From: Fibrobacteria bacterium
GTDB taxonomy: Bacteria > Fibrobacterota > Fibrobacteria > UBA11236 > JADFYW01
Reading direction: 5' to 3'
DNA length: 64,000 bases
Assembly: GCA_050294405.1 (NCBI GenBank)
Contig: JBNKOC010000012.1
Coordinates: forward strand, 552,091 to 616,090
Each line of letters opens with the position of its first letter. Positions within the stretch are counted from its first letter, which is position 1. Under the pieces are notes generated by a model that saw only the letters and a program-made list of their open reading frames with translations, was not told the origin of the DNA and ran no database searches. This document shows positions 24,840-53,989 of the stretch, in pieces. The translations under genes and the position numbers were made by a program.

Positions 24840-24876
24840 GCAAATGTATTTTCTTCAAAGATTTCAGCTTTAAAAG

Positions 24877-25977: not shown

Positions 25978-25985
25978 ATACGAAG

Positions 25986-26276: not shown

Positions 26277-26288
26277 GTTATATCCAGG

Positions 26289-27380: not shown

Positions 27381-27445
27381 AATGAAGTTTATAATACCTT
27401 TTTTTAAAATAGGGACAAAGCGAAAATTATTTTTAGTTTAAAGCC

Positions 27446-28264: not shown

Positions 28265-28280
28265 AAAAAACTAGCCCATT

Positions 28281-28703
28281 ATGGAACTCCGCCAAAAAAA
28301 AGCATTGGAACTGGCTCTCCAGGAATTTGGGGAGTCTTGGGTAAAGCTTGGAGGCTGGAGCATGTGGCCTTTTATTAGGAACGGGGATGAGGTCCTTTTA
28401 AAACCTTTGGCAAAAAAAAACATGTCGGGACGGATTGTAGGGTATTTTGCAGGGAATCAGCTAATTGTGCATCGGGTGCTGCGGGAAGAGTGGCGGGAAA
28501 ATGGCTTGTGTTTTATGGTGGAAGGGGATTTTAATCCAAATTCTGCTGTTTGGATAAATTCTTGCGATTGTCTCGGGCAAGTGGTGCGAATCCGTAGAAA
28601 TGGACAGCTTTTGCCTAAATTTTTTGCTGGGCGGCTTTTTGCCTTTCCCCGAATATTTAGCTATTTGGTGAAAGCTTTTAAAAAGACTCCAAAAGCCCAA
28701 TAG
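28281..28703 (+). CDS. S24/S26-like serine peptidase domain protein (candidate leader peptidase)
   Basis: 140 aa; ...LGGWSMWPFIRNGDEVLLKP... resembles the GDSM-P..-GD motif of signal-peptidase/LexA-type peptidases (Ser nucleophile; the general base is not confidently placed). Confidence 0.45.
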   Translation: MELRQKKALELALQEFGESWVKLGGWSMWPFIRNGDEVLLKPLAKKNMSGRIVGYFAGNQLIVHRVLREEWRENGLCFMVEGDFNPNSAVWINSCDCLGQVVRIRRNGQLLPKFFAGRLFAFPRIFSYLVKAFKKTPKAQ

Positions 28704-28719: not shown

Positions 28720-28748
28720 TTGAAACCCGTTGCCGCCCGTGGTATAAT
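28720..28748 (+). promoter_or_regulatory. Near-consensus sigma-70-type promoter TTGAAA-N17-TATAAT, about 150 nt upstream of the PQQ-repeat gene
   Basis: TTGAAA at 28720-28725, a 17-nt spacer, and TATAAT at 28743-28748. Confidence 0.4.
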
Positions 28749-28898: not shown

Positions 28899-30629
28899 AT
28901 GAAAAGCTTTTTAACCATATGCATGCTCTTTAGCTCCTGGGCTTATTCCCCAATGGCTGCCGAATGGCCGGGCTTTCGGGGAAACCCTGAGCGTACCGGA
29001 TTTTATTCCCGCGCCGTGGGCGTTCCGGAAAAAAATGCGGAGCCTCAGTGGAAAATTAAACTTCCCGGAGCTGTTATTTCTTCCCCGGCTATTGAAAATG
29101 GATATGTATATATCGGAGCCAGAGATTCCAGTGTGTATTGCTTGGATGCCAAAACCGGCGAAGTGATTTGGAAAGTGAAAACCGGTGGCTGGGTGGATAG
29201 TTCGCCTACTATACATAAGGATATAGTATACGTGGGTTCCAGAGATGGTTATTTATATGCCCTGGATAAAAAATCAGGAGATGTAATCAACAAGTATCCC
29301 GCTGGATTGCAATTGTCCTCACCTGCGGTTTATAACGATGAAAGCGTAATAACAGGCCTGGGCCCTCCGGTGAACGGAGTTTCTTCCTTTCCTTTAAGGG
29401 CTAGAAGCACGAAAATTGTGGATACAGTTTGGAGCCAACCCCTTCCTCAAATGAGCTATTCATCACCAGCCTTATCCAGAAATATTATGGTTATTGGCGC
29501 TAGTAATGGCAAAATGTATGGAAAAGATGCTTCCACCGGGGAAAATTTGTGGGATATTCAAACCCAAGGGGGCGTTTATTTGTCTACCCCATCCATTGAT
29601 GACAGTGTGGTATATTTTTCTCCGGGGAACCTGGACCAAAACATATATGTAAATCGACTTGAAAACGGCGAGGAACTGCGCAAGGTTTCCATCGGAGGGC
29701 CCCAGGGTTCTGTGCCTTCGGGCTATTTGCGTAAAACGGGTGCAGGTCCTAAATATATCCATCCCCATGTATTTAAACAGCTGTTAAGGTTATCGCCTGA
29801 AGACAGGCAGATGTATATGGACCAACTTAACTCAGAGGGTTACAAGCTCAATAAACTGTCAGCCAAAGGTCCCGAAGAAGAAAGCTACAAATGGATTCCC
29901 ATAGGAGGAATGAAAACTTCTTCCGTGGCCGTTGGACCAAATAATGCCTATGTTATTCAAAAATATCTGGGATTTTTGGAAACCTCCCCCAATCAATTCG
30001 ATTATCGGCCTTATTTTATACTGACCTCAGTGGATAAATCCAAGGGAAAGCAATCCTGGCAATTCCATAAAGTATTGGATTCCGAAAGGCTGGGTTACGC
30101 CTCCTCACCTATAGTAAGTAACTATTTAAAAGGGGGCCAGGTGGTGTTTTTTGGCTGGGGTGAAGGACGGGTTTATGCCCTTCATGACGACAAGGGGAAA
30201 TCAGAGCCCCAAATCCTTTGGGAAGACAAATTGCAGGGCCATGTTATTTCTTCGCCAGCCCTTGCGGATGGCCAACTTTATTTTGCCACCACCGAAGGCT
30301 ATGTATATGCATATCCGGTGGCTGTGGCCGCTAATCCCGCAGCTTTGAAAGAAGGCGTGTACGCCTATCCAAATCCGGTGCGTAAACGGGCTACGGAAGT
30401 CAATATTAATTTTGATCTCTCCGGCTCTACTGCTGATGTTAGTCTTGTAGTGTACAATACCGCTGAAAGGCCGGTTTTCAGAGACAACTTCCGGGTAAAT
30501 ACGGTTATGTCCTACAGTTGGAAACTAAAAGGCGTGGCTAACGGCGTGTATTTTGCCAAAGTAGTTGTGGATTACGACAGCGGTGGTTCCGATTCCAAAT
30601 GGATAAAAATTGCGGTGCTCAGGGAATGA
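28899..30629 (+). CDS. Secreted PQQ-like (BamB-type) beta-propeller repeat protein with T9SS-type C-terminal sorting domain
   Basis: Signal peptide. Repeated ...NGYVYIGARDSSVYCLDAKTGEVIWK... / ...DIVYVGSRDGYLYALDKKSGD... blades. C-terminus YPNPV...GVYFAKVVVDY...KIAVLRE matches Por_Secre_tail-like CTDs. Confidence 0.7.
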   Translation: MKSFLTICMLFSSWAYSPMAAEWPGFRGNPERTGFYSRAVGVPEKNAEPQWKIKLPGAVISSPAIENGYVYIGARDSSVYCLDAKTGEVIWKVKTGGWVDSSPTIHKDIVYVGSRDGYLYALDKKSGDVINKYPAGLQLSSPAVYNDESVITGLGPPVNGVSSFPLRARSTKIVDTVWSQPLPQMSYSSPALSRNIMVIGASNGKMYGKDASTGENLWDIQTQGGVYLSTPSIDDSVVYFSPGNLDQNIYVNRLENGEELRKVSIGGPQGSVPSGYLRKTGAGPKYIHPHVFKQLLRLSPEDRQMYMDQLNSEGYKLNKLSAKGPEEESYKWIPIGGMKTSSVAVGPNNAYVIQKYLGFLETSPNQFDYRPYFILTSVDKSKGKQSWQFHKVLDSERLGYASSPIVSNYLKGGQVVFFGWGEGRVYALHDDKGKSEPQILWEDKLQGHVISSPALADGQLYFATTEGYVYAYPVAVAANPAALKEGVYAYPNPVRKRATEVNINFDLSGSTADVSLVVYNTAERPVFRDNFRVNTVMSYSWKLKGVANGVYFAKVVVDYDSGGSDSKWIKIAVLRE

Positions 30630-31597
30630 TTATGAAAAGATACATACTACATAGTTCCCTAATAAGCCTTGTGCTTTTATTTTCCTACGGGATAACCCCG
30701 GCATTTTCCCAGGATTTTGCCTCGCGTTCTTATGCGGAATTCGGCGCGGAATATTTAAAACTGCCACGCCATGCGGGGACAGCCAGTCTTGCCAACGCCA
30801 GCGCCGCCTGGGAAGAAAACCTGCTGGGCCTTCAATACAATCCGGGGCTTATTGGTTACAATAGCCAACATCATGTAAACCTAAGCTATACCTTTTTAAC
30901 CCTGGACAGGCTTCATTACAGTTTGGAATATGTAAGCCCTAAATATTACGGTCAGAATTTTGGGGTTTCTATTACCAGCTTTGGCGTAAAAGATATTGAG
31001 GAAAGAGACGATACCGGCCAATTAAACGGCCATTTTGATGATACGGAAATTGCGGCTGATTTTCTGGCTGGGGGACAGCTCAAAGGCTGGTTTAGTTATG
31101 GAATAGCTTTACGATATATACATCAGCAATTGGGCGAATTTAATGAGTCTGGAGCTAAAGGTTTTGGCATGGATATAGGTGTGCATTACAAGCCAATGGA
31201 AAAAATAGGAATAGGGGCGAGTTTGCAAAATTTAGGTTCTTATTTGTGGTGGGAAACCGGACGCGAGGATCAAGTGGTGCCCATATTCAGGCTTGGAGTA
31301 AATGGAAATATTGTGGACTCGGTGCTCAAGGCGGAAATAGACATTGTCAAACCCTATTCTCAACCCATTGAATCTAACATTGGAGTGGAGGGAAAAATAT
31401 TAAGGGTAATAGCCGTTCGCGTTGGAATTGTAAATGCGCTAACCTATGATGCGGATGGCGCTGTATATATGGATCCAGAATTTTTTCTGGGAGTGGGGTT
31501 GTCCCACAAATTCTTTGGGTTTGAATATGCGGCCATGAAACCGGGTTCGGAACTGGGAATGGGGCATAAATTTTCGTTGCAGGTCAATTTTAATTAA
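30626..31597 (+). CDS. Outer-membrane beta-barrel protein, possibly PorP/SprF-family T9SS-associated
   Basis: Signal peptide MIMKRYILHSSLISLVLLFSYGITPAFSQ. About 320 aa with alternating amphipathic strands, ending ...FSLQVNFN. Start ATG overlaps the upstream stop (ATGA). Family assignment rests on size, barrel character and position upstream of giant surface-protein genes. Confidence 0.35.
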   Translation: MIMKRYILHSSLISLVLLFSYGITPAFSQDFASRSYAEFGAEYLKLPRHAGTASLANASAAWEENLLGLQYNPGLIGYNSQHHVNLSYTFLTLDRLHYSLEYVSPKYYGQNFGVSITSFGVKDIEERDDTGQLNGHFDDTEIAADFLAGGQLKGWFSYGIALRYIHQQLGEFNESGAKGFGMDIGVHYKPMEKIGIGASLQNLGSYLWWETGREDQVVPIFRLGVNGNIVDSVLKAEIDIVKPYSQPIESNIGVEGKILRVIAVRVGIVNALTYDADGAVYMDPEFFLGVGLSHKFFGFEYAAMKPGSELGMGHKFSLQVNFN

Positions 31598-31632
31598 GGA
31601 CCCATTTCATTTGCGAAAATGGGACTTGTAAT

Positions 31633-33990
31633 ATGCTGTTAAATAAAATATCCACATTGTTTTTGACCGTCGTCTTTGGCGCAGTATGTTATGGGGATTG
31701 GACTCAAACTGCCAGAGTGGTGGGATATAATCCTACTAAGGCGGATGTGGACATCTCCTCGGCAATGGAATGGGCGAAAAGCTTGAATGCTTCCGTGGTG
31801 GTCATTAGGCAAACTGCAGTGAGTGAATTTGATTGGCTGGATAAGCGAAATAAGGGTGACTCTCTTGCCCTTGACTTATTAGATCGCGTCATTAAAACCT
31901 GCCACCGAAATGGCTTAAGGGCTGTGGTGGATTTAAGCGTTTTAGAATTGAGAAGTTCCAATGGAGATGCAGATGAGGATGGCAAATTGGATGTTGGCGC
32001 AACAACCCTCTTGTCCACCCATTCCAGCTGGATTCAGGAAGACCTTCAGGGTAACAAGGCCGTTTTTTATGGGAAAATAAACCCTGAATCCAAAAAAGGA
32101 GATGAAACAGTTTGGGCTAATATCCACAGTTCCAATTTTAAAACCAAATTGCTTGCTTTAGTTAAAGCCGTAAGCTCAATCAATCCAGATGGTATCTTAT
32201 TTTCCAATGTTAGTTATCCTGTGAGAGAGGGGTGGGAGAATAAGTGGGCTAGTTTTGACAGCTATTCTGTAACGAATTTTAATAGCACCCTTCCCACTCA
32301 ATCTCAATTAGGCGATGTTCATTCCGCTGCTTTTACAAAGTGGGCTTCCTGGCGCATGAACAAATTATCCCAATTTTCAACGGAATTGAATTCCGCTGTG
32401 AAAAATGAAAATCCAGATGTCAAAACATTTATGCTGATTAAAAACGCCATCTCTCACGAAACATTAGTCCGCGGTTATGACTTTGATAAGCTCACTAAAA
32501 TTTTTGACGGCTTTGTGTATGATATAGACTTTTTGGGTGATGCGGTTTCCCGAAACAGTTATGAATGGATGATGTATTTTGCCTCAATTAAAGGGGCAAA
32601 CGAACTGGATGGGGAAAAGCCAAGCTGGGTAATTGATAGAACTAATACCTCTTCCTCCCTTACTGTATCTAAGGATATGAACAAGTTTGGGGACGCAGTT
32701 GCCACAGGGATGTATACTTCTTTGCAAGCTGGCATGAATGTGTGGATAACAGGGGGCAACAGAAAATACAGTGCCGCCACAAATGTAACCAAAATGGCTG
32801 AAATTTTTTCCTGGGTTAAAGAAAACCAAAATTGGCTTTATGGAGAAAGAAAAGTAGCCCAGTCTGTGGGGGTATATTTTTCTCAATCCAGTTTGCTGTA
32901 TCGCACAGGAAATAAATGGCAGGGGCATTTAGCCTCCTTTTATGGAACCCTAATGATGTTACACGAATTGCATATTCCCACAACCATAATCAGCACTGGA
33001 AATTTGAGTTTAGTAGACAAAGAGGAAGTGGAAGGTATAATACTTCCGCAGGTGGACTGCGCCTCTACAGTGGAAATTGATTCTTTAAGGGAGTATTACG
33101 AAAAAAGCAATCTCATTGTGTATTTTAGCGGCAGCGATGATAACCATTGCACGGAAAAAGGTGTATCCGCAGATTTTAGCTGGGATGATCAGCTATTGGA
33201 GGTAATGCAGAGAGGCGGGATTAATAAAGGCGAGACCTTTTTTAATAATGTAATGATGGATGGTAATGGGAATTTATTAAACGAAAATTACCCCAATTCT
33301 GTAGCCGCTGATATAAAAACCCAATTTTCAACGGATTTAAATTTTGCAGCCCAAATTGGATACGCACCCTTTGAAATGCCCTCTACCACTGCGGTTCGAG
33401 CCGTGAAAACAGATGAAGCGTTCTTTTATCATCTGGTTAATTTTGGAGGGCTGGATAATGGTAATATTGCCCGCAGTATCGAAGAAGAAGTGAATATTTA
33501 TCGAAATGGGGAAGAGTTGGAATCGGGAGCCATCGAAATGAACGGCGGGAGTTTGGAAGTTATCAGTTATTACTCCGATTTGAATTCAGAACAAACTCTT
33601 AACTTGGTAGAAAACTCCATGGGTAGCTCTGCCATTATCAGAGCGGGTGCTTTACCTGATTTAGAGGAAGATGTTGTATCCAATAAATTTATGGCTGCAA
33701 ACAGGAAAAAGCCGTCTTTCAACCTTCCAAAAAAATTATTGGTTCAAACAAAACTTATAAAGATTCATTATCAAAATCCCGGCCAGGAAATTGAAACTAT
33801 GGATTTCCAGGTATATGATATACATGGAAGGAATATTAAACAAATTTCCCTGGAAAGAGGGCGAAATGGCTTTAGTGCTAATTGGGATTTGGAAAGCCAA
33901 CCTGGAAATTATTTTCAGCCTGGAATGTACGCTTACAGGCTAGTTGGAAATGGAAAAGCCATAAAAATTGGGCAAATGGTGGTGCGTTAA
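31633..33990 (+). CDS. Secreted 785-aa protein, N-terminal glycoside-hydrolase-like (TIM-barrel-like) region, T9SS-type C-terminal sorting domain
   Basis: Signal peptide MLLNKISTLFLTVVFGAVCYG. The C-terminus ...FQVYDIHGRNIKQISL...GMYAYRLVGNGKAIKIGQMVVR is CTD-like. The catalytic-domain call is weak. Confidence 0.4.
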   Translation: MLLNKISTLFLTVVFGAVCYGDWTQTARVVGYNPTKADVDISSAMEWAKSLNASVVVIRQTAVSEFDWLDKRNKGDSLALDLLDRVIKTCHRNGLRAVVDLSVLELRSSNGDADEDGKLDVGATTLLSTHSSWIQEDLQGNKAVFYGKINPESKKGDETVWANIHSSNFKTKLLALVKAVSSINPDGILFSNVSYPVREGWENKWASFDSYSVTNFNSTLPTQSQLGDVHSAAFTKWASWRMNKLSQFSTELNSAVKNENPDVKTFMLIKNAISHETLVRGYDFDKLTKIFDGFVYDIDFLGDAVSRNSYEWMMYFASIKGANELDGEKPSWVIDRTNTSSSLTVSKDMNKFGDAVATGMYTSLQAGMNVWITGGNRKYSAATNVTKMAEIFSWVKENQNWLYGERKVAQSVGVYFSQSSLLYRTGNKWQGHLASFYGTLMMLHELHIPTTIISTGNLSLVDKEEVEGIILPQVDCASTVEIDSLREYYEKSNLIVYFSGSDDNHCTEKGVSADFSWDDQLLEVMQRGGINKGETFFNNVMMDGNGNLLNENYPNSVAADIKTQFSTDLNFAAQIGYAPFEMPSTTAVRAVKTDEAFFYHLVNFGGLDNGNIARSIEEEVNIYRNGEELESGAIEMNGGSLEVISYYSDLNSEQTLNLVENSMGSSAIIRAGALPDLEEDVVSNKFMAANRKKPSFNLPKKLLVQTKLIKIHYQNPGQEIETMDFQVYDIHGRNIKQISLERGRNGFSANWDLESQPGNYFQPGMYAYRLVGNGKAIKIGQMVVR

Positions 33991-33991
33991 T

Positions 33992-36900
33992 ATGTTCAAA
34001 AAAATATTGTTAACATTGCTGCTAATTTCATTGTCACAAGTGGCAGCATATTTTGTGGAATTAAACAGTATTGAAGACGCTGAAATGAGGGATGGAAGTC
34101 CTACGCTAAATTTTGGCGGGGCTCAAAATGTCCATTTTGGCACTAACGGTGGAGTGATATACAGGGGGCTAATAAAAATTAACTATGAAGACAGTATTCC
34201 TGACGGGGCTGTGGTGGATAGCGCTAAGTTATATATGTATATACAGGCAATAAATAGTGCACCCCAAAATGTTAGTATTTATCAGGTGCTGGTGGATTGG
34301 AATGCTGGGTCAAAAAACGGAGCCTATTTGGCGGGAGCTGTGAGCTGGGACTCGGCCAAAACTGGAATTACAGCTTGGAATGCAGCAGGAGCAAGCGGGT
34401 CGGGTTCAGATTATGTGGCAACCCCCATTACAAGCTATGCCTTTGCCAACTCTGGAGCATATGATTCTGTTTCCATTGAGGATGCCTTTAATTCCTGGAT
34501 ACAAGGTTCCCCAAACTATGGCATATTATTAACAAATGACGATGAAACTTGCGGCGGAGGAGCAAATTGCCGGATTCGCACCAGAGCAGAGGAACACAGT
34601 GATTCCAGTTATGTACGTATTTGGTACCAAATCCCCCCTCAATTAACCGGGCTAAGCGGAGGCGCGGAAGCCGGGGCCACCCAAAGCGATTCCAGTACAG
34701 TGACTATTTCCTATGAAATATATGATCCAGATGACGCCACAAATACAGTATCGGCTCAATATTGCTTAACTTCCAATGACTGTTCTGCGGCAGGAGCTGG
34801 CTGGACGGCTATGGCCAATACCACCGGAGATTTAGGGACCGTGTCCTCCACATCATCCTCCAGCGACAGGTTTATATACTGGGATGTGGAAACCCAACTG
34901 GGGTCCAGCGTTGATGATACTTATCGCGTGAGACTTATTGCTGTGGATGACTCGAGCAGTGTGGATACTCTTGAATCTGCCGATTTTATCGTAGACACTC
35001 AGGCTCCCACGAGTTTGGCTGGATTTTCCATGGATTCTGTCTATGAATCTTCAGCTGATGTCAGTTGGAGCACCCCGGCTGCGGATAACCACTTTAGCCA
35101 TTATGAAATATGGTTTGCGGAGGTGAAAGCCAATGTAGAGGCCAGAAACGCCTCTGCCGTGGAATGGGACCATACCGACGATGCCAACTTAGCCAATGCG
35201 GCAACTACATCCACATTGGTTCAGCTATTATCTTTCAGCACTAAATACTTTTTTAAAATTTGGGCTATCGACTCCGCAGGAAATGAAATATCTCTTCCCA
35301 CAGATAGTGGTACTACTCAGGCCTCAGATGTTCCTCTTGTATCTGGTTACGATCCTGAAACCAATGTAAGCGGAGTTATGGTCAGTTCTGATTCCGTAAA
35401 AATTCAATACGAAGTTCTCGACTTAGATGACTCTGTGGTTACGGTAACAGTAGAGACCAAACTGGCAAGCCAGGGGAGTTACGATAATTGGGCTACAGTG
35501 GATAGTTATATGTCAGGAGATACGGGCACTGTGGTGCAGTCTACCACCACGGACAGGTTAATTATCTGGGACATTGCTGCCCAACATGGAACCTCAGTTA
35601 ACGAAACAGCAACGGTAAGAGTTATTGCGGTGGATAGCAATGGGAATGCGGATACCAGTACTTCAGCTAGCTTTACCGTAGATACCCAAGCTCCCACAGC
35701 TCCAAGCGCTTTAACATCAACAGCAACTACTTCTTCTTCCGTTTCCTTAAGTTGGACTGCGGGTTCGGATGCAAATTTCAATCATTATGAAATTTGGTAT
35801 GGTACAGACCAGACAGAAGTGGAAAATAGAAATATTGCGGCGGAATGGGATGACTCGCCCCAGGATGCGAATTTGGCCACGGCTTCAACCACCAGTACTA
35901 CTATAACAGGGCTTCAGGCAAGTGTCACCTACTATTTCCATATATGGGCAGTGGATGATTATGGGAATGAAGCGGATTATGGGACAACATATTCCGTGGC
36001 AACTGCTGCAACTACGGATTTACAAATAACAGATATTGAAGATAATGTAATGCGCAGTAACAATACATCGGCAAATTGCGGCTCTGAACCAATCCGGGGT
36101 GGCCCCACCGCTGGAAGAAATGGAGGTTGGGGAGGCACTAAAAGAAGCTTAGTGAAAATTAACATGTCAGAAGTGCCCGCAGGGGCTACTATCGTATCAG
36201 CAACCTTTACCGCCCGATGTAATGCAGTAGGCGATGTTTCCTCTGTCACTATTGAGGCCTTTCCCTTATTGCAGGCCTTTGTGGAAGGAACAGATGGTTG
36301 CGGGACACAAGCGGGTTCCAGTTGCTGGAATGACTATGGGGCCGGTTCCTGGAGCACACCGGGGTTAGCTTCAGGCGTAGATTATGAGGCTACAGCGGTT
36401 TCATCTCAATCCGTAGCCGATGTGGGCACATACTCTTGGGATTTGACCAGCGTGGTTCAGGAATGGGTAAATGGAACCAGAACAAACAATGGGTTGGTAT
36501 TTATTGAATCTACGGAATCCGGTACTACCGGAAAGTTTTTTGATGCGGCAGAGGGAGCTATCCCACCATTCCTGGATGTACAATATACCTTGGGTTATCC
36601 TGAAGTAACCGGTTTGTCGGATGCCGCCCTTATTGGGGCGACCATGACCGGGGATCCGGATTCGGCCACTATAAGTTTTGAAGTATCAGATCCAAATGAT
36701 GTTAATGTAACTATTACTCTGCAATATAAACTTGCAGTTGGGGGAAGTTGGGCTGATGCTACTGAGGTGCTGGGCTATAGCGGTTCACAATCTGCCGCGG
36801 ATGGCGATGCCGACAGGAGCATTCGTTGGGCGGCTCGTTCTGAGCTTGGTAATGTGGATAACAATTATATGGTTCGAATTATAGCAACTGATGGCACCCT

Positions 36901-39682: not shown

Positions 39683-39733
39683 GAGAAACAAAACTCTGTT
39701 TTGAAAGCATAAAAAATTATAAATTGAAGTAAT

Positions 39734-39889
39734 ATGAAAGATTTGGGTAAGCATAAAAAAAAGCTAAAATACGAAGCACCTAAGGTAGAATCCGAAGCTA
39801 TATACGAGCAAAGTGCCTTGGCTTGCGGTAAATGCTTGACCACCAATACCCATCAAGCAGCCTGCTCCAAATCTCCCACAACCTCTTAA
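39734..39889 (+). CDS. Unannotated 50-aa small ORF, Cys-containing and RiPP-precursor-like: MKDLGKHKKKLKYEAPKVESEAIYEQSALACGKCLTTNTHQAACSKSPTTS
   Basis: Read by hand from the intergenic region between the two giant genes. Lys-rich N-terminal half and a C-terminal half with CxxC...C and Thr/Ser, ending in Ser. There is no strong SD. Confidence 0.3.
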   Translation: MKDLGKHKKKLKYEAPKVESEAIYEQSALACGKCLTTNTHQAACSKSPTTS

Positions 39890-40014
39890 AAATTATTTTA
39901 TAGGACCGTTTTCTGCGTTGTCCTGGGAATTTCTGATTTCGCCTTGAACCGGGCTTTCCTTGTAATTCGCAATTTTTTAAGTTGAGAATAGCTTAGGCTG
40001 TTTGGGGGAAAATA

Positions 40015-41169
40015 TTGATTCGATTTATGCACATTATGGGAGTTATCGGGCTGCTAATGGGAGGCTGTTCTCTTTTTGAATCTGATTCTAAGGCAAAAAA
40101 AACTGAGCTAAAGTTTGAAATGCACTCCATTTTTGTGGATAGTATGGCAGGTTATGCCCGTGCAACTCTTGTGGATATGGACAAAGACGGAGACTTGGAT
40201 TTTGTAACTGGATCGGTAGTAAGAACATACTGGTTTGAATATGTATCTGATTCTGTCTGGAACCCACATTTAATTACTACTCAGTCCAATTCAGATGTGG
40301 GTGGAGTTTCTCTTGATATTGACGGCGATGGCTGGGTAGATCACACAGCAGGTTCTTTATGGTTTAAAAACCCGGGTACGAGCCCCATGGAAAATTTTGA
40401 AAGCTTCAATAGCGGGTGTTTATACCGTACCCATGATATGGAGCAGGGCGACATGGATGGGGATGGGATTGTAGATGTTATTTCTCTGTCTGATCAGGGA
40501 TTAGGGGTTAGTTGGTGTAAATTTTCCAATGGCCCAGAAGAGCCCTGGCAAGTTTATGAAATACTCCCCGTGGATAACAACCGGCAGGAGCACAGCGGCA
40601 TGAATGTGGGGGATATTGATGGTGATGGAGATTTGGATGTGAGCATGGTGACGCGCTGGGTGGAAAATGTGGATGGAAAAGGAGAAAGTTGGCAACCCCA
40701 CGATTTAGAAGGCATGGGAATCAAGGGTATATATGGCTACGGCGGGGAAACAGAAGTCGCGGATTTGGACGGGGACGGTGATAACGATATTGTGGTTACT
40801 GAAGCGGACATTTCAAATGCCAGGGTGGGAGTTTTTGAGAATTTAAATGGGAAGGGCACACAGTGGAACTTAACCATTTTAAAGGACAGCACGGATATTC
40901 AAAATTTTCACTCCTTAAAAATTAGGGATTTTAATAATGATGGCAGGCTTGATATTTTTACCTGCAATCAGAAGCCGGAATCCGGTTATCCCTATTATAT
41001 CTGGTTAAATCTGGGCGGACTAGAATGGGAAGAAAAAATAATTTTCTCAGGAGTAGAGTGCCATGATGCCGTTGCAGGGGACGTGGATGGTGATGGGGAC
41101 ATGGATATAGTATCTAACGGATATGGTTTTCCTGAACACATTTTTTTGGAAAACAAGCTAATTGACTAG
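40015..41169 (+). CDS. FG-GAP/VCBS-repeat lipoprotein (7-blade integrin-alpha-like beta-propeller)
   Basis: Lipobox-like LLMGGCS. Seven Ca-binding-like repeats D-x-D-x-D-G-x-x-D (DMDKDGDLDFV, DIDGDGWVDH, DMDGDGIVDV, DIDGDGDLDV, DLDGDGDNDIV, DFNNDGRLDIF, DVDGDGDMDIV). Confidence 0.65.
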   Translation: MIRFMHIMGVIGLLMGGCSLFESDSKAKKTELKFEMHSIFVDSMAGYARATLVDMDKDGDLDFVTGSVVRTYWFEYVSDSVWNPHLITTQSNSDVGGVSLDIDGDGWVDHTAGSLWFKNPGTSPMENFESFNSGCLYRTHDMEQGDMDGDGIVDVISLSDQGLGVSWCKFSNGPEEPWQVYEILPVDNNRQEHSGMNVGDIDGDGDLDVSMVTRWVENVDGKGESWQPHDLEGMGIKGIYGYGGETEVADLDGDGDNDIVVTEADISNARVGVFENLNGKGTQWNLTILKDSTDIQNFHSLKIRDFNNDGRLDIFTCNQKPESGYPYYIWLNLGGLEWEEKIIFSGVECHDAVAGDVDGDGDMDIVSNGYGFPEHIFLENKLID

Positions 41170-41443
41170 TTAAAATTAGCACTCTGTCTTTCCAAAGCTG
41201 CATTAGCTATCTCCTTGTAAAGGAAATTTAACTTCCCAAATATTTGGAAAAAAACCTGCATTAGCGCCTTTAGAATTCTTTAATGAAGGTTCTTTTGGGT
41301 GGTATAATTATTAAGGGCAAAAAATGGAGGATTAGCCAAAAATTAAGGAAAACTGCTACAGAATTTTGAATTAAACTGAAAGTGGTTTTATTTCAAAATT
41401 GGGGCAATTTTATCATTTTCCAATACTTATGATTTGACATTTG

Positions 41444-44400
41444 ATGCAAGGCTTGTATAAACATTGCAACAGACTTTTCAGCCTATGGATTATCCTGGGC
41501 TGTGGTTTAATGGCCTTGCCTGCGTTTGCCAAATACAAACAATTTATTCTTGGAGATGATTCTCATTTAAACTCGGCAAACTCCGGGGTCAATTATGGTT
41601 CCACCCAATGGCTTTATGTAGGTAAAATTGGTACCGGAGCTAATGCAGATAGAGGTCCCTATAGGCCGGCCATAAAATTCCCAATTGATGATTCGCTTCC
41701 AAGCAATGCCATTATTGACAGTGCGGATATCTATCTATACATGATAGCCCAAAATGGGGCCGCAGATAATATTGCTGTCTATGTGATTCTTCAAAGTTGG
41801 TTGGAAGGAAGTGCGGACGGAACAGCTCAGGACGGATCTGTAACATGGAATTCCAGGCAACACAATGTAAGTACCTGGAATTCAGGAGGGGCTAGCACTA
41901 CAGGAACAGACCGAAATGCCGCAGCAGAAGCTAGCGTTTCTGTAGGCACCATCAATAGTTGGTATACATGGAGAGTGACTTCTGCGGTGCAGGATTGGGT
42001 GGATGGAACCCAAGCTAATAACGGACTTTTGTTTATTGGAACAGAAAACTCCAATCTAAGAAAACAGTTTAATTCCCTTGAAAGCGGTAATGCGGAGCTT
42101 CCCTATTTTGATGTATGGTATCGAGTGTATCCTGTGATTACCGGATTAAGCGGCGCCGCTTCTGCATCTGCAAGCCAGGACGACTCCAGCTATGTATCTG
42201 TATATTACGAGGTGGGAGATAATGATGATTCCTGGGTGGTTGTCACTATGGAATATCAGGTAGGTGGTGCGGGAGGGTGGACCGCCTTAACCAATACCAC
42301 AGGAGACATAGATACTGTGGATGCTAATTCCCAAAATGCAGATAGAACAGTGTTGTGGGATGCCAAGACCCAATTAGGTTCCAGCATTGATGATACATAT
42401 GCCATTCGAATTGTGGCTTCCGATTCGGAAGGAAATGCGGACACAGTAGTAACCTCCTCTTTTTTAATTGATACGGAAGATCCAACTACTTTAGCGAACT
42501 TGGCAGTGGTTGATTCTGGCGTGGCCAGTGCGGATTTGCAGTGGACCGCTGCTGTGGAAAGCCATTTTAGCCATTACGAAATTTGGTATGGCACAGATAA
42601 GGATGCTGTGAATGACAGAAGTGTGAGCGCCTTTCGCTGGAGCACAGATGAAGACGCTACGATGTCCACTATTTCTACCACCAGTGCAACGGTGTTGTTA
42701 TTGGAATATTTGACCAAATATTATTTTAAAATGTGGGCCCTGGATAGCGCTGGCAATGAATACGCTTCAAACATTGACAGTATGACCACTCTTACAACTA
42801 CGGCGCCCCTTGTAACAGGCTGGGATCCTTCCTCCAAGCCTAATGTTTTGCAATATAATACAGATAGTGCGTATGTGGGCTATGAAATTTGGGATGCGGA
42901 CGATTCCACTTTGCAGGTGGAATTCGAAATGCGCTGGAAAGATGAAGCTAGTTGGCGTAACTGGACGACCATGTCAGCCTATGTAAATGGCGACACTGGG
43001 TATGTCGCGGTGGATATTGTTAAGGATCAAACAATATATTGGGATGTAAGGGGACAATTTGGCTCCATAGATTCCACAGCGTTTGTGAGAATTATTGTAA
43101 CGGACTCGGCAAACAATAAGGATACGGCAACATCGGTAGAGTTTATAATTGATACAGAGGCTCCGACGTTCTCACCAACTTTATCTTCCCCTTCTAAAAC
43201 GGCATCCACCGTGGATTTACAGTGGTCAGCTACAGCAAGCGATACTCATTTTAATCATTATGAAATATGGTATGGAACCAGCCAGGCTAATGTTCAAAGC
43301 CGAAGCAATGCCGCGGAGTGGGATGAGGATAATGACGCTGCGCTTACCACTGCGTCCACCACCAGCACCTCCATTTACGGTCTTCTAGCTAATACCACCT
43401 ATTATTTTAAAATTTGGGCTGTGGATGACTATGGGAACGAAACTACAGTTGTTGATATTAATGTAACTACGGACGCCACCGCCACCACCCAGCTAACAGA
43501 TGTATCTGACAACATGATGGAAGATGATAATCCGAATTTTAACTACGGAGGAGATGCCACCCACGGAGGAGCCACCGCAGGAAAAGTGGGCTCTGGCGGG
43601 GGCGGGTACTTGCAACGCACCCTTGTTAAAATAAATAATATTAGCGATGTTCCCGCCGGGGCAACCATAGTGTCAGCTACCTTTAATGCCTATGCGGCAA
43701 CTGTGGGATCCACAAATGGCTATAATATTGGCATGTACCGGGTGCTTCGGGATTGGAACGAAGGGACCGCAACCGGAGTGGATCAGGCAAATCAAAGCAA
43801 CTGGAATGACTATGCTGACGAAAATAACTGGACTACAGCCGGGGCAAGCAGTACTGGAAATGATATAACAACTGTAATCACCAGCACCACAGTTAGTACT
43901 GTAGGTTGGTATTCTTGGGATATAACTGCGGATTTTGCAGCCTGGCACAATGGCACTAACCCAAATTACGGGATGTTGTTTATGTCCGCTTCCGAGGGGA
44001 CAAATGATTCCTATAAAAATTTTAATTCCGCAGAGGGGGCGAATGTGCCCTATGTGGATGTTACCTATGTTATGGAACCCCCTCAGGTTTCCGGACTTAG
44101 CGATACCACTCTTATTACAGCCTATCAAAACAATGCAGATACTGCTATTGTTAAATATGAATTATCCGATCCAAATGATTTAACAGCCACCGTTAGCTTG
44201 CAGTACAAACTAAGCGGTGGAAGTTGGACCAGTACCTCCAATACATCTGGAGATATTGGTGCTGGAATTCCTGCTGACAATGAATTTGCTGACAGAACCA
44301 TTTACTGGGATGTCCGAACAAATTTGGGAATCGGAGTAGACGGAACCTATAAGTTGAGAGTCATTGCCAATGATGGAACATTGGCTGACACTACTGAAAG

Positions 44401-47116
44401 TAATTGGATAGGCCTTGACACAAAAGACCCGCTTGGGTTGGCTAATTTCGTAGTGGCGGATTCTTTTAGTTATTCCATGGATTTTAATTGGACGGCAGTT
44501 ACAACAGAAGGACATTTCAGCCATTATGAAATTTGGTATGGTTCCAATAAAACAGACGTGTCGAATCGTTCCGGAACAGCTCAGGAATGGGATGGTGATA
44601 ATAATAATGGAATGAACACAGCCTCTACCAATACTATGATTATTACGGGACTTAGCTCCTCCACTAAATACTATTTTAAAATTTGGGTAGTGGATTCCAT
44701 GACCAACGAAGCCACCACAGGGATGGATAGCGCTACAACTTTAGACGATCCTATTCCAACAGTTACCGGGTGGTCTCAGGCAAGTGTGGTGAATGCCAGT
44801 CAAATTAATCCTGATACAGTACAAGTGGGATATCAGGTGGTGGATATTGATGACTCTCTTGCGGTATGCGGATTGCAGTACACAGCTACATCTCCAATAT
44901 CCTGGGCGAATGCGACCACAGTTACAGGTGATGTGGATACGGTGGTTACAGGCGTTTCTTATAATGATACCATATATTGGAACGCATTAACGGATTTAGG
45001 CGCTGGAATTGATGCCAGCTACTATGTTCGCGTCCATTGCGTGGACGATACCAGTTTTGCGGATACCACCCAATCCGCCAGCTTTTCCATTGATTTTGTA
45101 TCTCCTGTGGGTTTAGCTTCTCTAACCGCAGGGACAACGGATGCAACAAGTTCAGGTTTGTCCTGGACATCGGTGTCTACGGAATCCCACTTTAGCCATT
45201 ATGAAATATGGTATGGGACCAACCAGTCGGATGTGCAAAATAGAACAGGCACGGCCCTGGAGTGGACTGTAACAGAGGACGCTACTCTGGCCGCTCAGGC
45301 AACAGATACTACTACTGTTACCTCTTTGGTGCCAAATTCCACTTACTATTTTAAAATTTGGGCTGTGGATTCTGCGGGAAATGAAACCACAGTAGCTGAT
45401 GTTAATGTAGCAACATCGGCAACCAATGATCCGGTTGTCACAGGTCCCTCCAATGCACCAAAAATTGCCGCTACCCAATACTCCACCAGCGATGTTAGGA
45501 TTCGCTACGAGGTGGATGATGCCGATGACGCCAGTGTGACGGTTTCTGCGGAATATTTTTTATATGCGGGATCGGGCTGGACTTCTTTAACAAATACATC
45601 GGGGGATATTGGCTCTGTAACAACATCTCCCACAAATCAAGACACCATAATATGGACCGCGGCCACTCAATTGGGAAGCATTGATTCGGTTTATCAAATA
45701 AGAGTGATAGCTACAGATGGAGGTGTTTTAGATACTTTGGCCAGCGATACCTTTGCCATTGATACCAAAGCCCCATCCGGTTTGGCTTCTTTTTCAGCCA
45801 CAGATACAACGGGGGTTAGTATTAGCTTGGGATGGACTGCAGCCACAGATAGAAACTTCAGCAACTATGAAATTTGGTACGGGACAAATCAAACTGATGT
45901 GCAAAACAGAACGGGAACTGCAACAGAATGGGATGGTGCTGATGATGGGAACCTAAATTCAGCCACTACCTCGGCTACTACAATAACAAGTCTTTCCATC
46001 GGAACTTCCTATTATTTTAAGATTTGGGCTTTGGATAACATTGGCAACGAGAGCACATTGGCCGATATTAATGTAAGTACCAAATCACAAGTGGCAGCAA
46101 ATTGGAGTAAAACTTCCATTGGAGAGGTTAAGGGAGGGGCGGTAGGTTTATCCAGGTTATATGTTACTGTGGGAAGTCCCAACTTTAGGCTAATTAGCTA
46201 TAATTTGTCCACAGGTGCCCAAAGTTGGTTTTTCTCAACGGTGGCCTATGGCGCGGCCAATCGACCTAGCTACATATATTCCGGTGGGGTGTACAAAATA
46301 TTGCTATCGGCTGGTAATTTTTTAATTGGGCGGCAGGATAACGTAACCTCATCTTCGGCGCTATTCACTACTATAGATTTTGGCACCACGGTGGGGGTTC
46401 CTTATGCGAGCCCGGATGATTCCACTTTTTATGTTACTTATACAAATGCCATTACCAGAAGAATGATTTCCGGGGGAAGCGTTGTGTCGGGATGGCCCCA
46501 GACGCTATCAAATGTGAGTACTAATGCCGACCCGGTGGTGGAGAATGATGCTATTTATGTGGCTACAACAAGTGGCATGGTGTATAGCTATGATGTAGAT
46601 GGAACACAAGGGCCTTCTTTCAATGCTGGGGCTAATGTATCTCAACCCATGGTGGCTGGAGATGGCATACTGTACATTGCCCCCAACAGCGCTAATTTAT
46701 ATGCGGTGAATGCCTCTACCATGAGTGCAGTGTGGACACCATCAGCGGTAAGCCTGGATGCTTCTAATACGGGAGCCCCCTACGTGGATAAAGATTTAGC
46801 GGCCATATATGTGGCCGTGGGAAATAAAGTTCAAAAAATTAACAATAATGGAGCCACCGCCAGTGTGGAGTGGACTTTTGATGCGGGTGACAATATCAGC
46901 TCAAGCCCGGTGGTCAAAAATGGAGTGGTATATTTTGGTAGGGACAATGGCAGATACTATGCCATAAATGATGCGGCTACACCCACAGCTGTAACCAATT
47001 GGCCCTATGCAGATATTAGCGGTGACGCGGATATGGGACCATGGATTGATGTCACCAACAACCAGGTGATTTTTGGCACAAGCGGCCAGAACCTCGATGC
47101 CTTTAATTTGGAATAG
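41444..47116 (+). CDS. Giant cell-surface protein, paralogue of 33992..39682 (DNRLRE-like + Ig/FN3-like modules + C-terminal PQQ-like propeller)
   Basis: Signal peptide ...LFSLWIILGCGLMALPAFA. Same module order and signature strings as the other giant (SHYEIWYGT..., YYFKIWA.D..GNE). The C-terminus ...NQVIFGTSGQNLDAFNLE parallels ...GRVIFGTDNENIDSFTQE. Confidence 0.7.
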   Translation: MQGLYKHCNRLFSLWIILGCGLMALPAFAKYKQFILGDDSHLNSANSGVNYGSTQWLYVGKIGTGANADRGPYRPAIKFPIDDSLPSNAIIDSADIYLYMIAQNGAADNIAVYVILQSWLEGSADGTAQDGSVTWNSRQHNVSTWNSGGASTTGTDRNAAAEASVSVGTINSWYTWRVTSAVQDWVDGTQANNGLLFIGTENSNLRKQFNSLESGNAELPYFDVWYRVYPVITGLSGAASASASQDDSSYVSVYYEVGDNDDSWVVVTMEYQVGGAGGWTALTNTTGDIDTVDANSQNADRTVLWDAKTQLGSSIDDTYAIRIVASDSEGNADTVVTSSFLIDTEDPTTLANLAVVDSGVASADLQWTAAVESHFSHYEIWYGTDKDAVNDRSVSAFRWSTDEDATMSTISTTSATVLLLEYLTKYYFKMWALDSAGNEYASNIDSMTTLTTTAPLVTGWDPSSKPNVLQYNTDSAYVGYEIWDADDSTLQVEFEMRWKDEASWRNWTTMSAYVNGDTGYVAVDIVKDQTIYWDVRGQFGSIDSTAFVRIIVTDSANNKDTATSVEFIIDTEAPTFSPTLSSPSKTASTVDLQWSATASDTHFNHYEIWYGTSQANVQSRSNAAEWDEDNDAALTTASTTSTSIYGLLANTTYYFKIWAVDDYGNETTVVDINVTTDATATTQLTDVSDNMMEDDNPNFNYGGDATHGGATAGKVGSGGGGYLQRTLVKINNISDVPAGATIVSATFNAYAATVGSTNGYNIGMYRVLRDWNEGTATGVDQANQSNWNDYADENNWTTAGASSTGNDITTVITSTTVSTVGWYSWDITADFAAWHNGTNPNYGMLFMSASEGTNDSYKNFNSAEGANVPYVDVTYVMEPPQVSGLSDTTLITAYQNNADTAIVKYELSDPNDLTATVSLQYKLSGGSWTSTSNTSGDIGAGIPADNEFADRTIYWDVRTNLGIGVDGTYKLRVIANDGTLADTTESNWIGLDTKDPLGLANFVVADSFSYSMDFNWTAVTTEGHFSHYEIWYGSNKTDVSNRSGTAQEWDGDNNNGMNTASTNTMIITGLSSSTKYYFKIWVVDSMTNEATTGMDSATTLDDPIPTVTGWSQASVVNASQINPDTVQVGYQVVDIDDSLAVCGLQYTATSPISWANATTVTGDVDTVVTGVSYNDTIYWNALTDLGAGIDASYYVRVHCVDDTSFADTTQSASFSIDFVSPVGLASLTAGTTDATSSGLSWTSVSTESHFSHYEIWYGTNQSDVQNRTGTALEWTVTEDATLAAQATDTTTVTSLVPNSTYYFKIWAVDSAGNETTVADVNVATSATNDPVVTGPSNAPKIAATQYSTSDVRIRYEVDDADDASVTVSAEYFLYAGSGWTSLTNTSGDIGSVTTSPTNQDTIIWTAATQLGSIDSVYQIRVIATDGGVLDTLASDTFAIDTKAPSGLASFSATDTTGVSISLGWTAATDRNFSNYEIWYGTNQTDVQNRTGTATEWDGADDGNLNSATTSATTITSLSIGTSYYFKIWALDNIGNESTLADINVSTKSQVAANWSKTSIGEVKGGAVGLSRLYVTVGSPNFRLISYNLSTGAQSWFFSTVAYGAANRPSYIYSGGVYKILLSAGNFLIGRQDNVTSSSALFTTIDFGTTVGVPYASPDDSTFYVTYTNAITRRMISGGSVVSGWPQTLSNVSTNADPVVENDAIYVATTSGMVYSYDVDGTQGPSFNAGANVSQPMVAGDGILYIAPNSANLYAVNASTMSAVWTPSAVSLDASNTGAPYVDKDLAAIYVAVGNKVQKINNNGATASVEWTFDAGDNISSSPVVKNGVVYFGRDNGRYYAINDAATPTAVTNWPYADISGDADMGPWIDVTNNQVIFGTSGQNLDAFNLE

Positions 47117-50659: not shown

Positions 50660-50673
50660 TGCAAGAAACTCCC

Positions 50674-53981: not shown

Positions 53982-53989
53982 ATTAATAA

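Follow-up and report, generated by a model that had tools for sequence, protein, structure and literature searches.

[quoted passage not shown] To our knowledge, nearly all that is known of T9SS biology comes from Bacteroidota, in which all surface cargo bears a CTD. An ORF check of the window recovered the predicted set of six plus-strand genes at their predicted positions, and all six products, the giants included, begin with signal-peptide-like segments read from the sequence. The view of the locus as one encoding secreted, T9SS-flavored surface proteins is supported. A passage in the literature reports T9SS for the Fibrobacteres-Chlorobi-Bacteroidetes group (PMC11205867). We found the locus to be one instance of a conserved, previously undescribed gene cluster that is specific to the Fibrobacterota lineage.

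A PorV/PorQ-family barrel and its propeller partner

Judging from its orthologs, Met12 is the most likely start of the barrel, giving a 321-aa protein (30632..31597, plus strand; the ORF opens at 30599 and spans 332 aa). By both its sequence and its predicted structure, it is a member of the PorV/PorQ family with a FadL-like, 14-strand-type outer-membrane β-barrel fold. The NCBIfam PorV family model (NF033709) matches it at 98.1 bits (cut-off 90) and likewise matches 10 of the 10 members of the barrel family, in line with the expectation of a T9SS-family outer-membrane protein. A single-sequence search of the PDB with the barrel gave no matches. Its AF2 model (pLDDT 71.5, pTM 0.71; built from a shallow alignment of six sequences, with the N-terminal 50 residues at low confidence) recovers PorV (8gl6_F, E = 6.7e-10, TM 0.65) as the top Foldseek match in the PDB, with a second PorV chain (6h3i_F) ranking third and FadL and TodX after it; both PorV chains come from the F. 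johnsoniae translocon. The PorP/SprF models PF11751 and TIGR03519 of Pfam and NCBIfam do not match it at E≤0.01. Taken with the PorV/PorQ matches in sequence and fold, this rules out the proposed PorP/SprF-like identity; a barrel scoring as something other than PorP/SprF is, in spirit, the outcome that the original prediction had named as speaking against it. The scores against the equivalog models, namely 57.1 bits for PorQ (NF033711, cut-off 220) and 47.0 bits for PorV (NF033710, cut-off 250), indicate a distinct subfamily orthologous to neither, with PorQ being the best equivalog match for all 10 barrels.

Immediately upstream lies the gene for a 576-aa protein (28899..30629, plus strand) combining a signal peptide, a BamB/PQQ-like β-propeller (PQQ_2, 102 bits; Beta-prop_ACSF4, 133.3 bits in profile searches), and a T9SS type-A CTD, hereafter the propeller-CTD protein. 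The assignment of the tail is borderline, with scores just under both curated cut-offs (TIGR04183, 21.9 bits against 23; Por_Secre_tail, PF18962, 22.1 bits against 27). Nine of 10 orthologs match TIGR04183 at E≤1e-3 (best 2.8e-7), the ortholog in the related locus L006 scores above the threshold for a type-A CTD (28.7 against 27), the CTD of the T9SSA_dep_M6i model aligns with the protein (E = 8e-10), and the tail contains the motifs YPNP, GVYFA, and KIAVL. In a PDB search, the only CTD-bearing solved structure recovered was PorZ of Porphyromonas gingivalis (5m11_A), matched by the C-terminal 150 aa (E = 2.8e-5). The PorZ model NF052228 reaches just 19.9 bits against a cut-off of 260, in an alignment confined to the last blade and the CTD, and it weakly matches three of the 10 propeller-CTD proteins.

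In the P. gingivalis attachment complex, PorQ anchors the CTD protein PorZ, whose CTD is implicated in the contact with PorQ, and PorV anchors PorU (PMC5562754). Our pair resembles these complexes in coupling a PorV/PorQ-family barrel to a CTD-bearing β-propeller surface protein whose C-terminal region is PorZ-like. It differs in that its genes adjoin each other, with apparent translational coupling, in that the length of the propeller-CTD protein permits one propeller, interrupted by an insertion of ~70 aa, whereas PorZ has two, and in that neither protein comes near its equivalog cut-off (57 against 220 for PorQ and 20 against 260 for PorZ), so that the two are not an orthologous attachment complex. 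It differs further in its linkage to CTD-less giants and a radical SAM (rSAM) peptide cassette, neither of which is known to us for PorQ or PorZ. Elsewhere, distant matches to the propeller without the pair were seen in one Bacteroidota (L008) and one Syntrophales (L009) locus and were set aside.

Giant proteins without a T9SS tail and their variable neighbors

Giant 1 (33992..39682, plus strand; 1896 aa from Met9, as in the NCBI gene model, within an ORF of 1904 aa opening at 33968) and giant 2 (41444..47116, plus strand; 1890 aa, within an ORF of 1891 aa opening at 41441) are collinear paralogs with 826 of 1928 positions identical (43%), and share the predicted common architecture: a signal peptide, a DNRLRE domain, two X-FN3 units, a second DNRLRE domain, three further X-FN3 units, and an eight-bladed propeller with no CTD after it. 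The anticipated two DNRLRE stretches per giant are recovered by NF033679 (105.4 and 141.4 bits; cut-off 34 bits), lying at residues 31-218 and 686-871 of giant 1, and the forecast of at least five Ig/FN3-like modules agrees with five Pfam fn3 domains in each, every one preceded by a β-sandwich-like domain of ~115 aa, here termed X. The string SHYEIWYG, said to be invariant in these modules, is indeed recurrent, occurring exactly in five of the 10, but the invariant form is the degenerate [SN][HN]YEIW[YF][GA]. Pfam places a propeller at the C-terminus of each giant, and the AlphaFold model of the last 346 aa of giant 2 (pLDDT 82) comprises one complete eight-bladed propeller (TM 0.81 to an eight-bladed designed propeller and 0.78 to BamB), as expected of the predicted PQQ-like domain.

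Neither giant matches the type-A (TIGR04183) or type-B (TIGR04131) CTD models in Pfam and NCBIfam searches, and an HMM built from the CTDs of the family scores ≤3 bits on them; together with the structure model, this rules out a hidden CTD at their C-termini. The absence of both CTD types means that the giants are not conventional T9SS cargo, and the SprB-SprF paradigm is therefore inapplicable to them. The likeness to SprB-SprF lies in the placement of a gene for a giant repetitive surface protein beside one for a T9SS-family outer-membrane protein; it ends at the family of the barrel and the lack of either CTD type on the giants.

The tandem duplication proposed for the giants does not hold in a recent form. 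Giant 2 is orthologous to the giants of loci L004 and L005, to which it is closer (55% and 47% identity) than to giant 1 (43%), indicating that the paralogs are old, and positionally equivalent domains of the giants are more alike than the repeats inside one protein. The propeller is among their less conserved domains (36% identity between giants 1 and 2), and we rejected homology between the giant propeller and that of the propeller-CTD protein, there being no BLAST similarity at E = 1e-5. All versions of the giant family nonetheless retain the C-terminal propeller, across lengths of 970 to 2331 aa and differing N-terminal domains.

Two further genes accompany the giants in the window. The 785-aa protein encoded ahead of giant 1 (31633..33990, plus strand) was predicted to be enzyme-like, and the family-level evidence concurs: Pfam GHL6 matches the protein itself at 19 bits, its family of 120 relatives matches GHL10, Glyco_hydro_42M, and GHL6, and its profile retrieves GH42 β-galactosidases from the PDB (E = 3e-9), which a single-sequence search with the protein did not. 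It probably bears a type-A CTD, to judge by its match to TIGR04183 (17.2 bits against 23, E = 0.0037), the Por_Secre_tail matches of two of 26 family members (E down to 4.8e-11), and the typical CTD at the end of its homolog P0060. None of the related loci examined carries the gene. A 506-aa gene upstream of the L004 giant, considered as a possible homolog, instead codes for an LRR protein whose CTD is weak. What is encoded ahead of the giant varies among LRR, CarboxypepD_reg, and GH-like proteins. The 384-aa protein encoded between the giants (40015..41169, plus strand) has five FG-GAP_3 (FG-GAP/VCBS) repeats (100.8 bits) and a lipobox-like LLMGGC signal, consistent with the putative lipoprotein that had been proposed. 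It matches no T9SS tail model of Pfam or NCBIfam, and no homolog occurs in any related locus examined. The count of three Por-type tails in the locus accordingly falls to two, on the 576- and 785-aa proteins, both borderline, with none on the giants or the FG-GAP protein.

A radical SAM cassette and a three-cysteine peptide in the same cluster

Between giant 1 and the FG-GAP gene we detected a small ORF, missed in the first reading of the locus, coding for a 51-aa peptide (39734..39889, plus strand) with three invariant cysteines and an invariant C-terminal serine. Its homologs occur in L006, L007, L010/L025, L017, L019, L021, L023, L024, L026, and L027, and it belongs with 38 unnamed database clusters from Fibrobacterota lineages; no NCBIfam model matches it. 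The peptide gene adjoins giant-like, barrel, or propeller genes in 10 loci, seven of which have an rSAM/SPASM gene, with or without PqqD, nearby. We consider it a putative precursor of a ribosomally synthesized and modified peptide (RiPP) and a putative rSAM/SPASM substrate on the basis of this co-location.

The candidate maturation enzymes are encoded upstream of the propeller-CTD gene (24015-28703). Two rSAM/SPASM enzymes (24877..25977 and 26289..27380, minus strand; Pfam Radical_SAM and SPASM) flank a 96-aa PqqD-like (RRE) protein (25986..26276, minus strand), which was found by ORF search and is 34-35% identical to the PF05402 PqqD-bearing proteins of L017 and L025. The first enzyme is 49% identical to its L025 ortholog and matches many NCBIfam families of peptide-maturase rSAM/SPASM proteins, all below their cut-offs; the second is 48% identical to its L025 ortholog and has relatives adjoining the peptide gene in L006, L017, L019, L021, and L026. 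They are followed by a 272-aa ScmC/HprK-like P-loop protein (27446..28264, plus strand), with weak PEPCK_ATP and HprK_rel_A matches and a 42% identical L025 ortholog that matches ScmC (PF27840), and by a 140-aa S26 signal-peptidase-like protein (28281..28703, plus strand; NCBIfam sigpep_I_arch at 33.4 bits, below the cut-off of 51.85), an ortholog of which occupies the equivalent position in L011/L025. The outer edge of the cassette is formed by a SAM-dependent methyltransferase (24015..24839, minus strand; Pfam Methyltransf_31/11/23), which may belong to the system by its position and was not seen in the related loci.

This gene set resembles the SynChlorMet (SCM) cassettes in its two rSAM/SPASM enzymes, PqqD-like protein, ScmC-like HprK-related protein, and small cysteine-containing peptide, but the ScmE/ScmF models, with cut-offs of 400, score only 104-110 bits, and for the peptide there is no model match. 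We know of no SCM cassette that includes T9SS-type barrels, propellers, or giant proteins, and literature searches on SynChlorMet/ScmC with radical SAM and on SPASM with type IX secretion returned nothing relevant. A parallel in logic alone is offered by quinohemoprotein amine dehydrogenase, in which the rSAM/SPASM enzyme QhpD cross-links the QhpC peptide, which is then assembled with a β-propeller subunit: here too, a small multi-cysteine peptide, presumptively matured by rSAM/SPASM enzymes, could join an extracytoplasmic propeller complex. The present peptide differs in having no tryptophan for a CTQ cofactor, and the cluster differs in having no heme subunit, ABC exporter, or subtilisin-like protease.

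The cluster might be primarily a RiPP system, in which the rSAM/SPASM enzymes, PqqD, ScmC-like kinase, and S26-like peptidase carry out maturation of the peptide. The barrel and propellers would then act in peptide export, reception, or immunity, and the giants would be unrelated insertions in this genome. Such a system would fit the gene order in the window and in L025, which has no giants, where the genes for the propeller-CTD protein and the barrel separate the maturation genes from that for the peptide. It would also fit the rSAM and PqqD genes directly upstream of the peptide gene in L017, L019, L021, and L026, and the invariant C-terminal serine and the HprK-like protein, which together recall the lasso-peptide C-terminal serine kinases (PMC6993621). 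Against this, a giant-like gene directly follows the peptide gene in six loci (L006, L007, L017, L024, L026, and L027), which makes the giants more than incidental; the clusters examined contain no transporter gene; and the peptide, matching no family, is only putatively modified. We therefore regard a primarily RiPP-directed cluster as distinctly improbable.

Conserved linkage and a proposed mode of surface docking

Wherever the contig permits the test, in 10 of 10 related loci, the barrel gene is accompanied by the propeller-CTD gene, either next to it or elsewhere in its cluster (the window, L002, L003, L005, L006, L014, L016, L019, L025, and L027). Most related Fibrobacterota/Chitinivibrionales loci also carry a giant-family gene in the cluster (the window, L004, L005, L006, L007, L014, L019, L021, L024, L026, and L027), and all of these except L026 show linkage of the barrel to the giant family. 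The orders vary, with at least four represented: pair-giant, giant-propeller-barrel, barrel-giant-propeller, and barrel-216-aa protein-giant-propeller. The pair also occurs without any giant, in L002 and L025. An upstream gene fragment in L002, considered as a giant C-terminus, instead has an FGE-sulfatase-like end. L025 retains the flanking genes of the window on both sides, in the order rSAM, PqqD, rSAM, ScmC, S26-like, propeller-CTD, barrel, peptide, TyrRS, and lacks the two blocks that flank the peptide gene in the window, namely the GH-like-CTD gene with giant 1 and the FG-GAP gene with giant 2. As all the relatives come from one phylum, some of this synteny may reflect common inheritance and not selection.

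The predicted genetic linkage of barrel and giants is thus borne out in ten loci, the window among them, while the notion that the barrel is dedicated to the giants is not, its constant neighbor being the propeller-CTD gene. Secretion and anchoring of the giants by a PorP/SprF-like adaptor can draw on that linkage in several genomes and on the membership of the barrel among T9SS-family outer-membrane proteins; set against the PorV/PorQ identity of the barrel, the giants that end in a full propeller with neither CTD type, and the giant-free pairs, it becomes extremely unlikely.

Nearly as implausible is that the giants are independent secreted or periplasmic adhesins or S-layer-like proteins exported by another route and adjacent to the pair through shared ancestry only. 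They have no recognizable outer-membrane targeting signal, and the lysine-rich tails that follow the propeller in some orthologs (L004, L005, and L024) hint at another anchoring mode, but the linkage has been kept through the varied gene orders across deeply diverged loci.

Alternatively, the pair could be the phylum's general PorZ/PorQ-type subunits of an attachment complex delivering a surface glycan or LPS to a sortase, with the giants and the peptide cassette as neighbors lacking any specific functional connection. This proposal, which we consider doubtful, is favored by the PorQ and PorZ affinities described above and by glycan/O-antigen-type genes, which fit surface-glycan handling: Wzy_C, three GT4, WbqC, DegT, and STAS genes immediately precede the cluster in L019, L021, and L026, and Wzy_C adjoins the barrel gene of L006. 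It is weakened by the far-sub-threshold equivalog scores and the single, insertion-bearing propeller, by a linkage to giant and peptide genes that has outlasted repeated changes in gene order at protein identities of 35-45%, by the presence of two such loci (L005 and L017) in one MAG (GCA_964543525.1), and by housekeeping T9SS genes not usually residing inside a peptide-maturation cassette.

The reading that we prefer, with a probability of roughly 0.5, is that the barrel and the propeller-CTD protein form a pair for docking at the surface, similar to PorZ/PorQ and coupled in function to both the giants and the peptide. The propeller-CTD protein would be exported via Sec and T9SS, and its type-A CTD, probably not removed, would hold the propeller on the dedicated PorV/PorQ-family barrel encoded alongside. 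The giants, which have a Sec signal, a stalk that varies in its lectin-like DNRLRE and β-sandwich domains, and a shared C-terminal X-FN3-propeller, would be partners of the pair rather than tail-recognized cargo; their C-terminal propeller would most likely be the attachment end, and the N-terminal DNRLRE domains the distal, probably glycan-binding, end. We know of no route across the outer membrane for a CTD-less protein of 200 kDa, and hence we infer, rather than assert, the surface exposure of the giants. The neighboring rSAM/SPASM-PqqD-ScmC-like cassette would mature the three-cysteine peptide as a member of the same system, and the mature peptide could be a cross-linked small subunit, a ligand, or an adaptor.

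In a bolder version, which we offer as a speculation with the odds clearly against it, an rSAM-cross-linked and possibly serine-phosphorylated peptide would be built into a T9SS-anchored propeller complex as a subunit, cofactor, or adaptor, and the CTD-less giants would be lectin-like fibers mounted by propeller-propeller or propeller-peptide contacts on the barrel-docked propeller-CTD protein, a CTD-independent, 'piggy-back' form of T9SS display.

The cluster presents, in the deep-branching Fibrobacterota, a module in which a PorQ-like barrel with a private propeller-CTD partner travels with CTD-less giants through several gene orders. Were the giants displayed via the pair, T9SS-linked surface display would have a second mode that needs no tail, and the many unassigned PorV/PorQ paralogs would gain a function. 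The conserved three-cysteine peptide and its rSAM/SPASM-PqqD-ScmC cassette likewise provide a concrete biological context for 'orphan' radical-SAM peptide cassettes.

As for non-coding features, tRNA and Rfam scans of the window gave no matches, and a promoter/terminator scan of the window found 40 candidates against 43.9 expected from shuffled sequence, that is, no excess. One 11/12 match from the latter scan, at 28720-28748, precedes the propeller-CTD gene.

The propeller-CTD protein and its adjacent barrel

The first gene of the locus (28899-30629, + strand) codes for a 576-aa BamB/PQQ-like β-propeller (PQQ_2, 102 bits; Beta-prop_ACSF4, 133.3 bits) with a predicted type-A T9SS C-terminal sorting domain (CTD) that scores just below both cut-offs (TIGR04183, 21.9 vs 23; PF18962, 22.1 vs 27). 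Nine of its 10 orthologues match TIGR04183 (best E 2.8e-7), the one from the related locus L006 lies above the Pfam threshold (28.7 vs 27), and the 576-aa protein itself aligns with the CTD part of a curated model for a T9SS-dependent protein (E 8e-10); as judged from these profiles, the CTD is secure at the family level. The sole CTD-bearing solved chain matched is Porphyromonas gingivalis PorZ (5m11_A; E 2.8e-5, family profile E 2.3e-5), with the resemblance confined to the last blade and the CTD. Upstream of this gene, in intergenic DNA, lies the region's strongest sigma-70-like match (28720-28748, + strand; 11/12, extended -10 TG), from a scan that as a whole does not exceed shuffled expectation.

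The next ORF opens at 30599 and most likely starts at Met12 (30632), matching the orthologue starts and lying 3 nt past the upstream stop, to give a 321-aa barrel. The original prediction took this to be a PorP/SprF-like protein; however, neither PF11751 nor TIGR03519 is matched at E≤0.01, and the barrel instead scores above the cut-off of the curated model for the PorV/PorQ subfamily (98 bits vs 90). Its equivalog scores are higher for PorQ (57 bits) than for PorV (47 bits) and far below both cut-offs. All 10 orthologues show this pattern on the subfamily and equivalog models alike. The barrel is of the same family as PorQ and PorV, yet an orthologue of neither. The AlphaFold model (pLDDT 71.5, pTM 0.71, shallow alignment) is closest to PorV chains of Flavobacterium johnsoniae translocon complexes (8gl6_F, E 6.7e-10; 6h3i_F), followed by FadL and TodX.

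In Porphyromonas, the CTD proteins PorU and PorZ are kept on the surface, held by PorV and PorQ (PMC5562754). By analogy, the adjacent and apparently coupled genes for a propeller-CTD protein and a PorQ-like barrel fit this PorU-PorV/PorZ-PorQ logic, and we consider the two products a probable T9SS docking pair: the T9SS would export the propeller-CTD protein and then park its propeller on a private barrel.

The giant proteins and the genes beside them

All six + strand ORFs predicted earlier between 28899 and 47116 were recovered in place, with giant 1 starting at Met9 (33992), 1 nt beyond the stop of the 785-aa gene (NCBI model, 1896 aa), and giant 2 at 41444 (NCBI model, 1890 aa). All six products have putative Sec signals (basic, hydrophobic, and small-residue segments in succession), and the FG-GAP protein shows a lipobox-like LLMGGC. 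Both giants share one architecture, namely a signal peptide, DNRLRE, two X-FN3 units, DNRLRE, three X-FN3 units, and a propeller, where X is a domain of ~115 aa with no family match and a weak resemblance to FN3. The supposedly invariant SHYEIWYG occurs literally in only five of the 10 FN3 modules, and the motif is better written [SN][HN]YEIW[YF][GA]. In giant 2, the C-terminal 346 aa are confidently modeled as one complete 8-bladed propeller (pLDDT 82, pTM 0.81; TM 0.81 to Cake8 and 0.78 to BamB), and the giants' propeller shows modest conservation. Giant 2 is closer to the giants of the related loci L004 (55% identity) and L005 (47%) than to giant 1 (43%), which argues for old paralogues rather than a recent tandem duplication.

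The giants match no CTD model and score ≤3 bits with an HMM built from the CTDs of this family. Por-type tails terminate two proteins of the locus and not three, as had been claimed. The giants cannot be ordinary T9SS cargo, and we know of no export route for them. The SprB/SprF paradigm invoked at the outset breaks down, as the locus has neither of its two defining features. In some giant orthologues, a short Lys-rich tail (e.g., ...KLKPKVKPNLKRKIK) extends past the propeller (L004 8801-8900, L005 9699-9818, L024 ~11600-11753); it is absent from both giants of the window, and may relate to anchoring.

The 785-aa protein has 120 relatives, with matches among 26 family members to GHL10 (12), Glyco_hydro_42M (10), and GHL6 (7), and its family profile matches GH42 β-galactosidases (E 3e-9). 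These matches make the earlier label 'enzyme-like' a fair one for what is, by sequence, a GH42/GHL-type glycoside-hydrolase-like protein. Its tail is sub-threshold for TIGR04183 (17.2 bits) with the usual CTD motifs present, and a typical CTD is seen at the end of a homologue with 29% identity. Counterparts of the 785-aa and FG-GAP genes were found in none of the related loci. The gene just 5' of the giant, which reaches or runs into its start, differs from genome to genome (L004 1774-3294, L005 1963-4110, window 31633-33990): it encodes an LRR protein whose CTD is weak, a protein of CarboxypepD_reg repeats, or the GH42-like protein with its probable CTD. The position has the look of a variable 'accessory' slot.

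Conserved linkage within Fibrobacterota

Relatives were gathered by searching for barrel and small-peptide homologues and by scanning genomes with the propeller-CTD family and metagenomes with the barrel family. They come from MAGs assigned to Fibrobacterota, Chitinivibrionales, Chitinispirillia, and Fibrobacteria, which places the window's own organism almost certainly in Fibrobacterota. All the evidence derives from a single phylum. The barrel and propeller-CTD genes occur together wherever the contig permits a test (window, L002, L003, L005, L006, L014, L016, L019, L025, and L027). At L017 (12472-13713), a second locus in the L005 MAG, the barrel is fused to ~100 N-terminal residues similar to the beginning of the propeller-CTD protein, an N-terminal remnant of that gene, and the giant-like gene is split (443 + 284 aa); this copy of the cluster appears to be in decay or remodelled.

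Clusters that include a giant-family gene are those of the window, L004, L005, L006, L007, L014, L019, L021, L024, L026, and L027. These proteins (970-2331 aa) have diverse N-termini (DNRLRE/X-FN3 arrays, DUF2341/Laminin_G_3 arrays, or shorter forms) and, in every case, the same C-terminal propeller. The gene order varies: the pair precedes the giant in the window, with giant-propeller-barrel in L005, L006, and L027, barrel-giant-propeller in L014, and barrel-216aa-giant-propeller in L019 and L021. As the linkage survives such rearrangement at 35-50% protein identity, we favor, with some reserve, a functional tie linking the giants to the pair. Two loci, L002 and L025, have the pair and no giant. 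Especially informative is L025 (order rSAM, PqqD, rSAM, ScmC, S26-like, propeller-CTD, barrel, small peptide, TyrRS), which shares the window's flanking genes (38-67% identity) and lacks, as compared over its positions 8935-10872, the two blocks that straddle the peptide gene in the window, 785-aa/giant 1 (31633-39682) and FG-GAP/giant 2 (40015-47116); these are either insertions in the window's lineage or losses in that of L025. AAA_14/DUF4143 ATPase genes and a Y1 transposase inside or beside clusters (L006 4519-5886, L004 253-1464, L026 7836-8564) are consistent with local rearrangement between loci.

A candidate modified peptide and the proposed display module

Overlooked in the original prediction were a 51-aa peptide ORF (39734-39889, + strand; MKDLGKHKKKLKYEAPKVESEAIYEQSALACGKCLTTNTHQAACSKSPTTS) between giant 1 and the FG-GAP gene, and a putative maturation cassette. 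The peptide has three cysteines and a terminal serine, with about 50% identity within its family; residues invariant in an alignment of four sequences (A4) include Y13, P16, E19-S20-E21, I23, E25, ALACGKC, Q41, A43-C44, P48, and the C-terminal Ser, a pattern from which a few members of the wider family deviate. Homologues occur in L006, L007, L017, L019, L021, L023, L024, L025, L026, and L027. The family forms 38 clusters in the protein database, all unnamed, and every named source is a Fibrobacterota lineage; as none matches the window's peptide at 100%, its gene apparently went uncalled in the source annotation.

Directly 3' of the peptide gene there is usually a giant-like gene or the barrel, and 5' of it a radical SAM (rSAM)/SPASM gene, often with PqqD (L006, L017, L019, L021, L026). 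The putative maturation genes of the window and L025 are arranged as a divergent cassette, in the window directly upstream of the propeller-CTD cluster (24015-28703), with a methyltransferase, rSAM/SPASM, PqqD (25986-26276), and rSAM/SPASM on the - strand, and a ScmC/HprK-like P-loop protein followed by an S26 signal-peptidase-like protein on the + strand. This arrangement is that of L025, save for the methyltransferase, and its make-up is that of SynChlorMet (SCM)-type peptide-modification cassettes, with no curated cut-off passed. Certain lasso peptides are phosphorylated at their C-terminal Ser by HprK-type kinases (PMC6993621), an analogy that makes the invariant terminal Ser notable. Full-text literature searches returned no paper joining SPASM or SCM cassettes with T9SS components.

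Given that the pair fits the docking logic and that the giants combine a constant C-terminus with a variable N-terminus, we favor a surface-display module, at a probability of about one half, in which the docked propeller would have the giants as its partners and the matured peptide would form a further component. The C-terminal X-FN3-propeller being the sole constant feature beside a variable N-terminal 'payload', the C-terminus would be the attachment end and the lectin-like DNRLRE domains the business end; that the giants are anchored via their propeller in particular is nevertheless doubtful. What is new here is the conserved composite context of a PorQ/PorZ-type pair, and a truly new display mechanism employing an rSAM-matured peptide seems improbable.

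In several relatives, glycan/O-antigen-type genes (Wzy_C, STAS, three GT4, WbqC, and a DegT aminotransferase) adjoin the rSAM-peptide-barrel-giant-propeller cluster, in several loci immediately upstream (L019 1-8030, L021 1-7853, L026 1-5970, L006 12619-14049), which may point to a connection with the attachment of surface glycans. The window's own flanks are chromosomal housekeeping genes, with RpoD, RelA/SpoT, EF-G, and MurB upstream and TyrRS, DsbB, and DsbA downstream. Further genes in the window code for a YkuD L,D-transpeptidase with a Cds6_C NTF2-like domain (2506-3951, + strand) adjoining a 729-aa protein with only weak, coiled-coil-type matches (3988-6177, + strand), a ThuA-like protein adjoining a 694-aa DUF7133 and HEAT-repeat protein (49619-52758, - strand; 309 bits), and a tandem paralogue pair of cNMP-binding-domain proteins of 354 and 338 aa (52917-55006, - strand).
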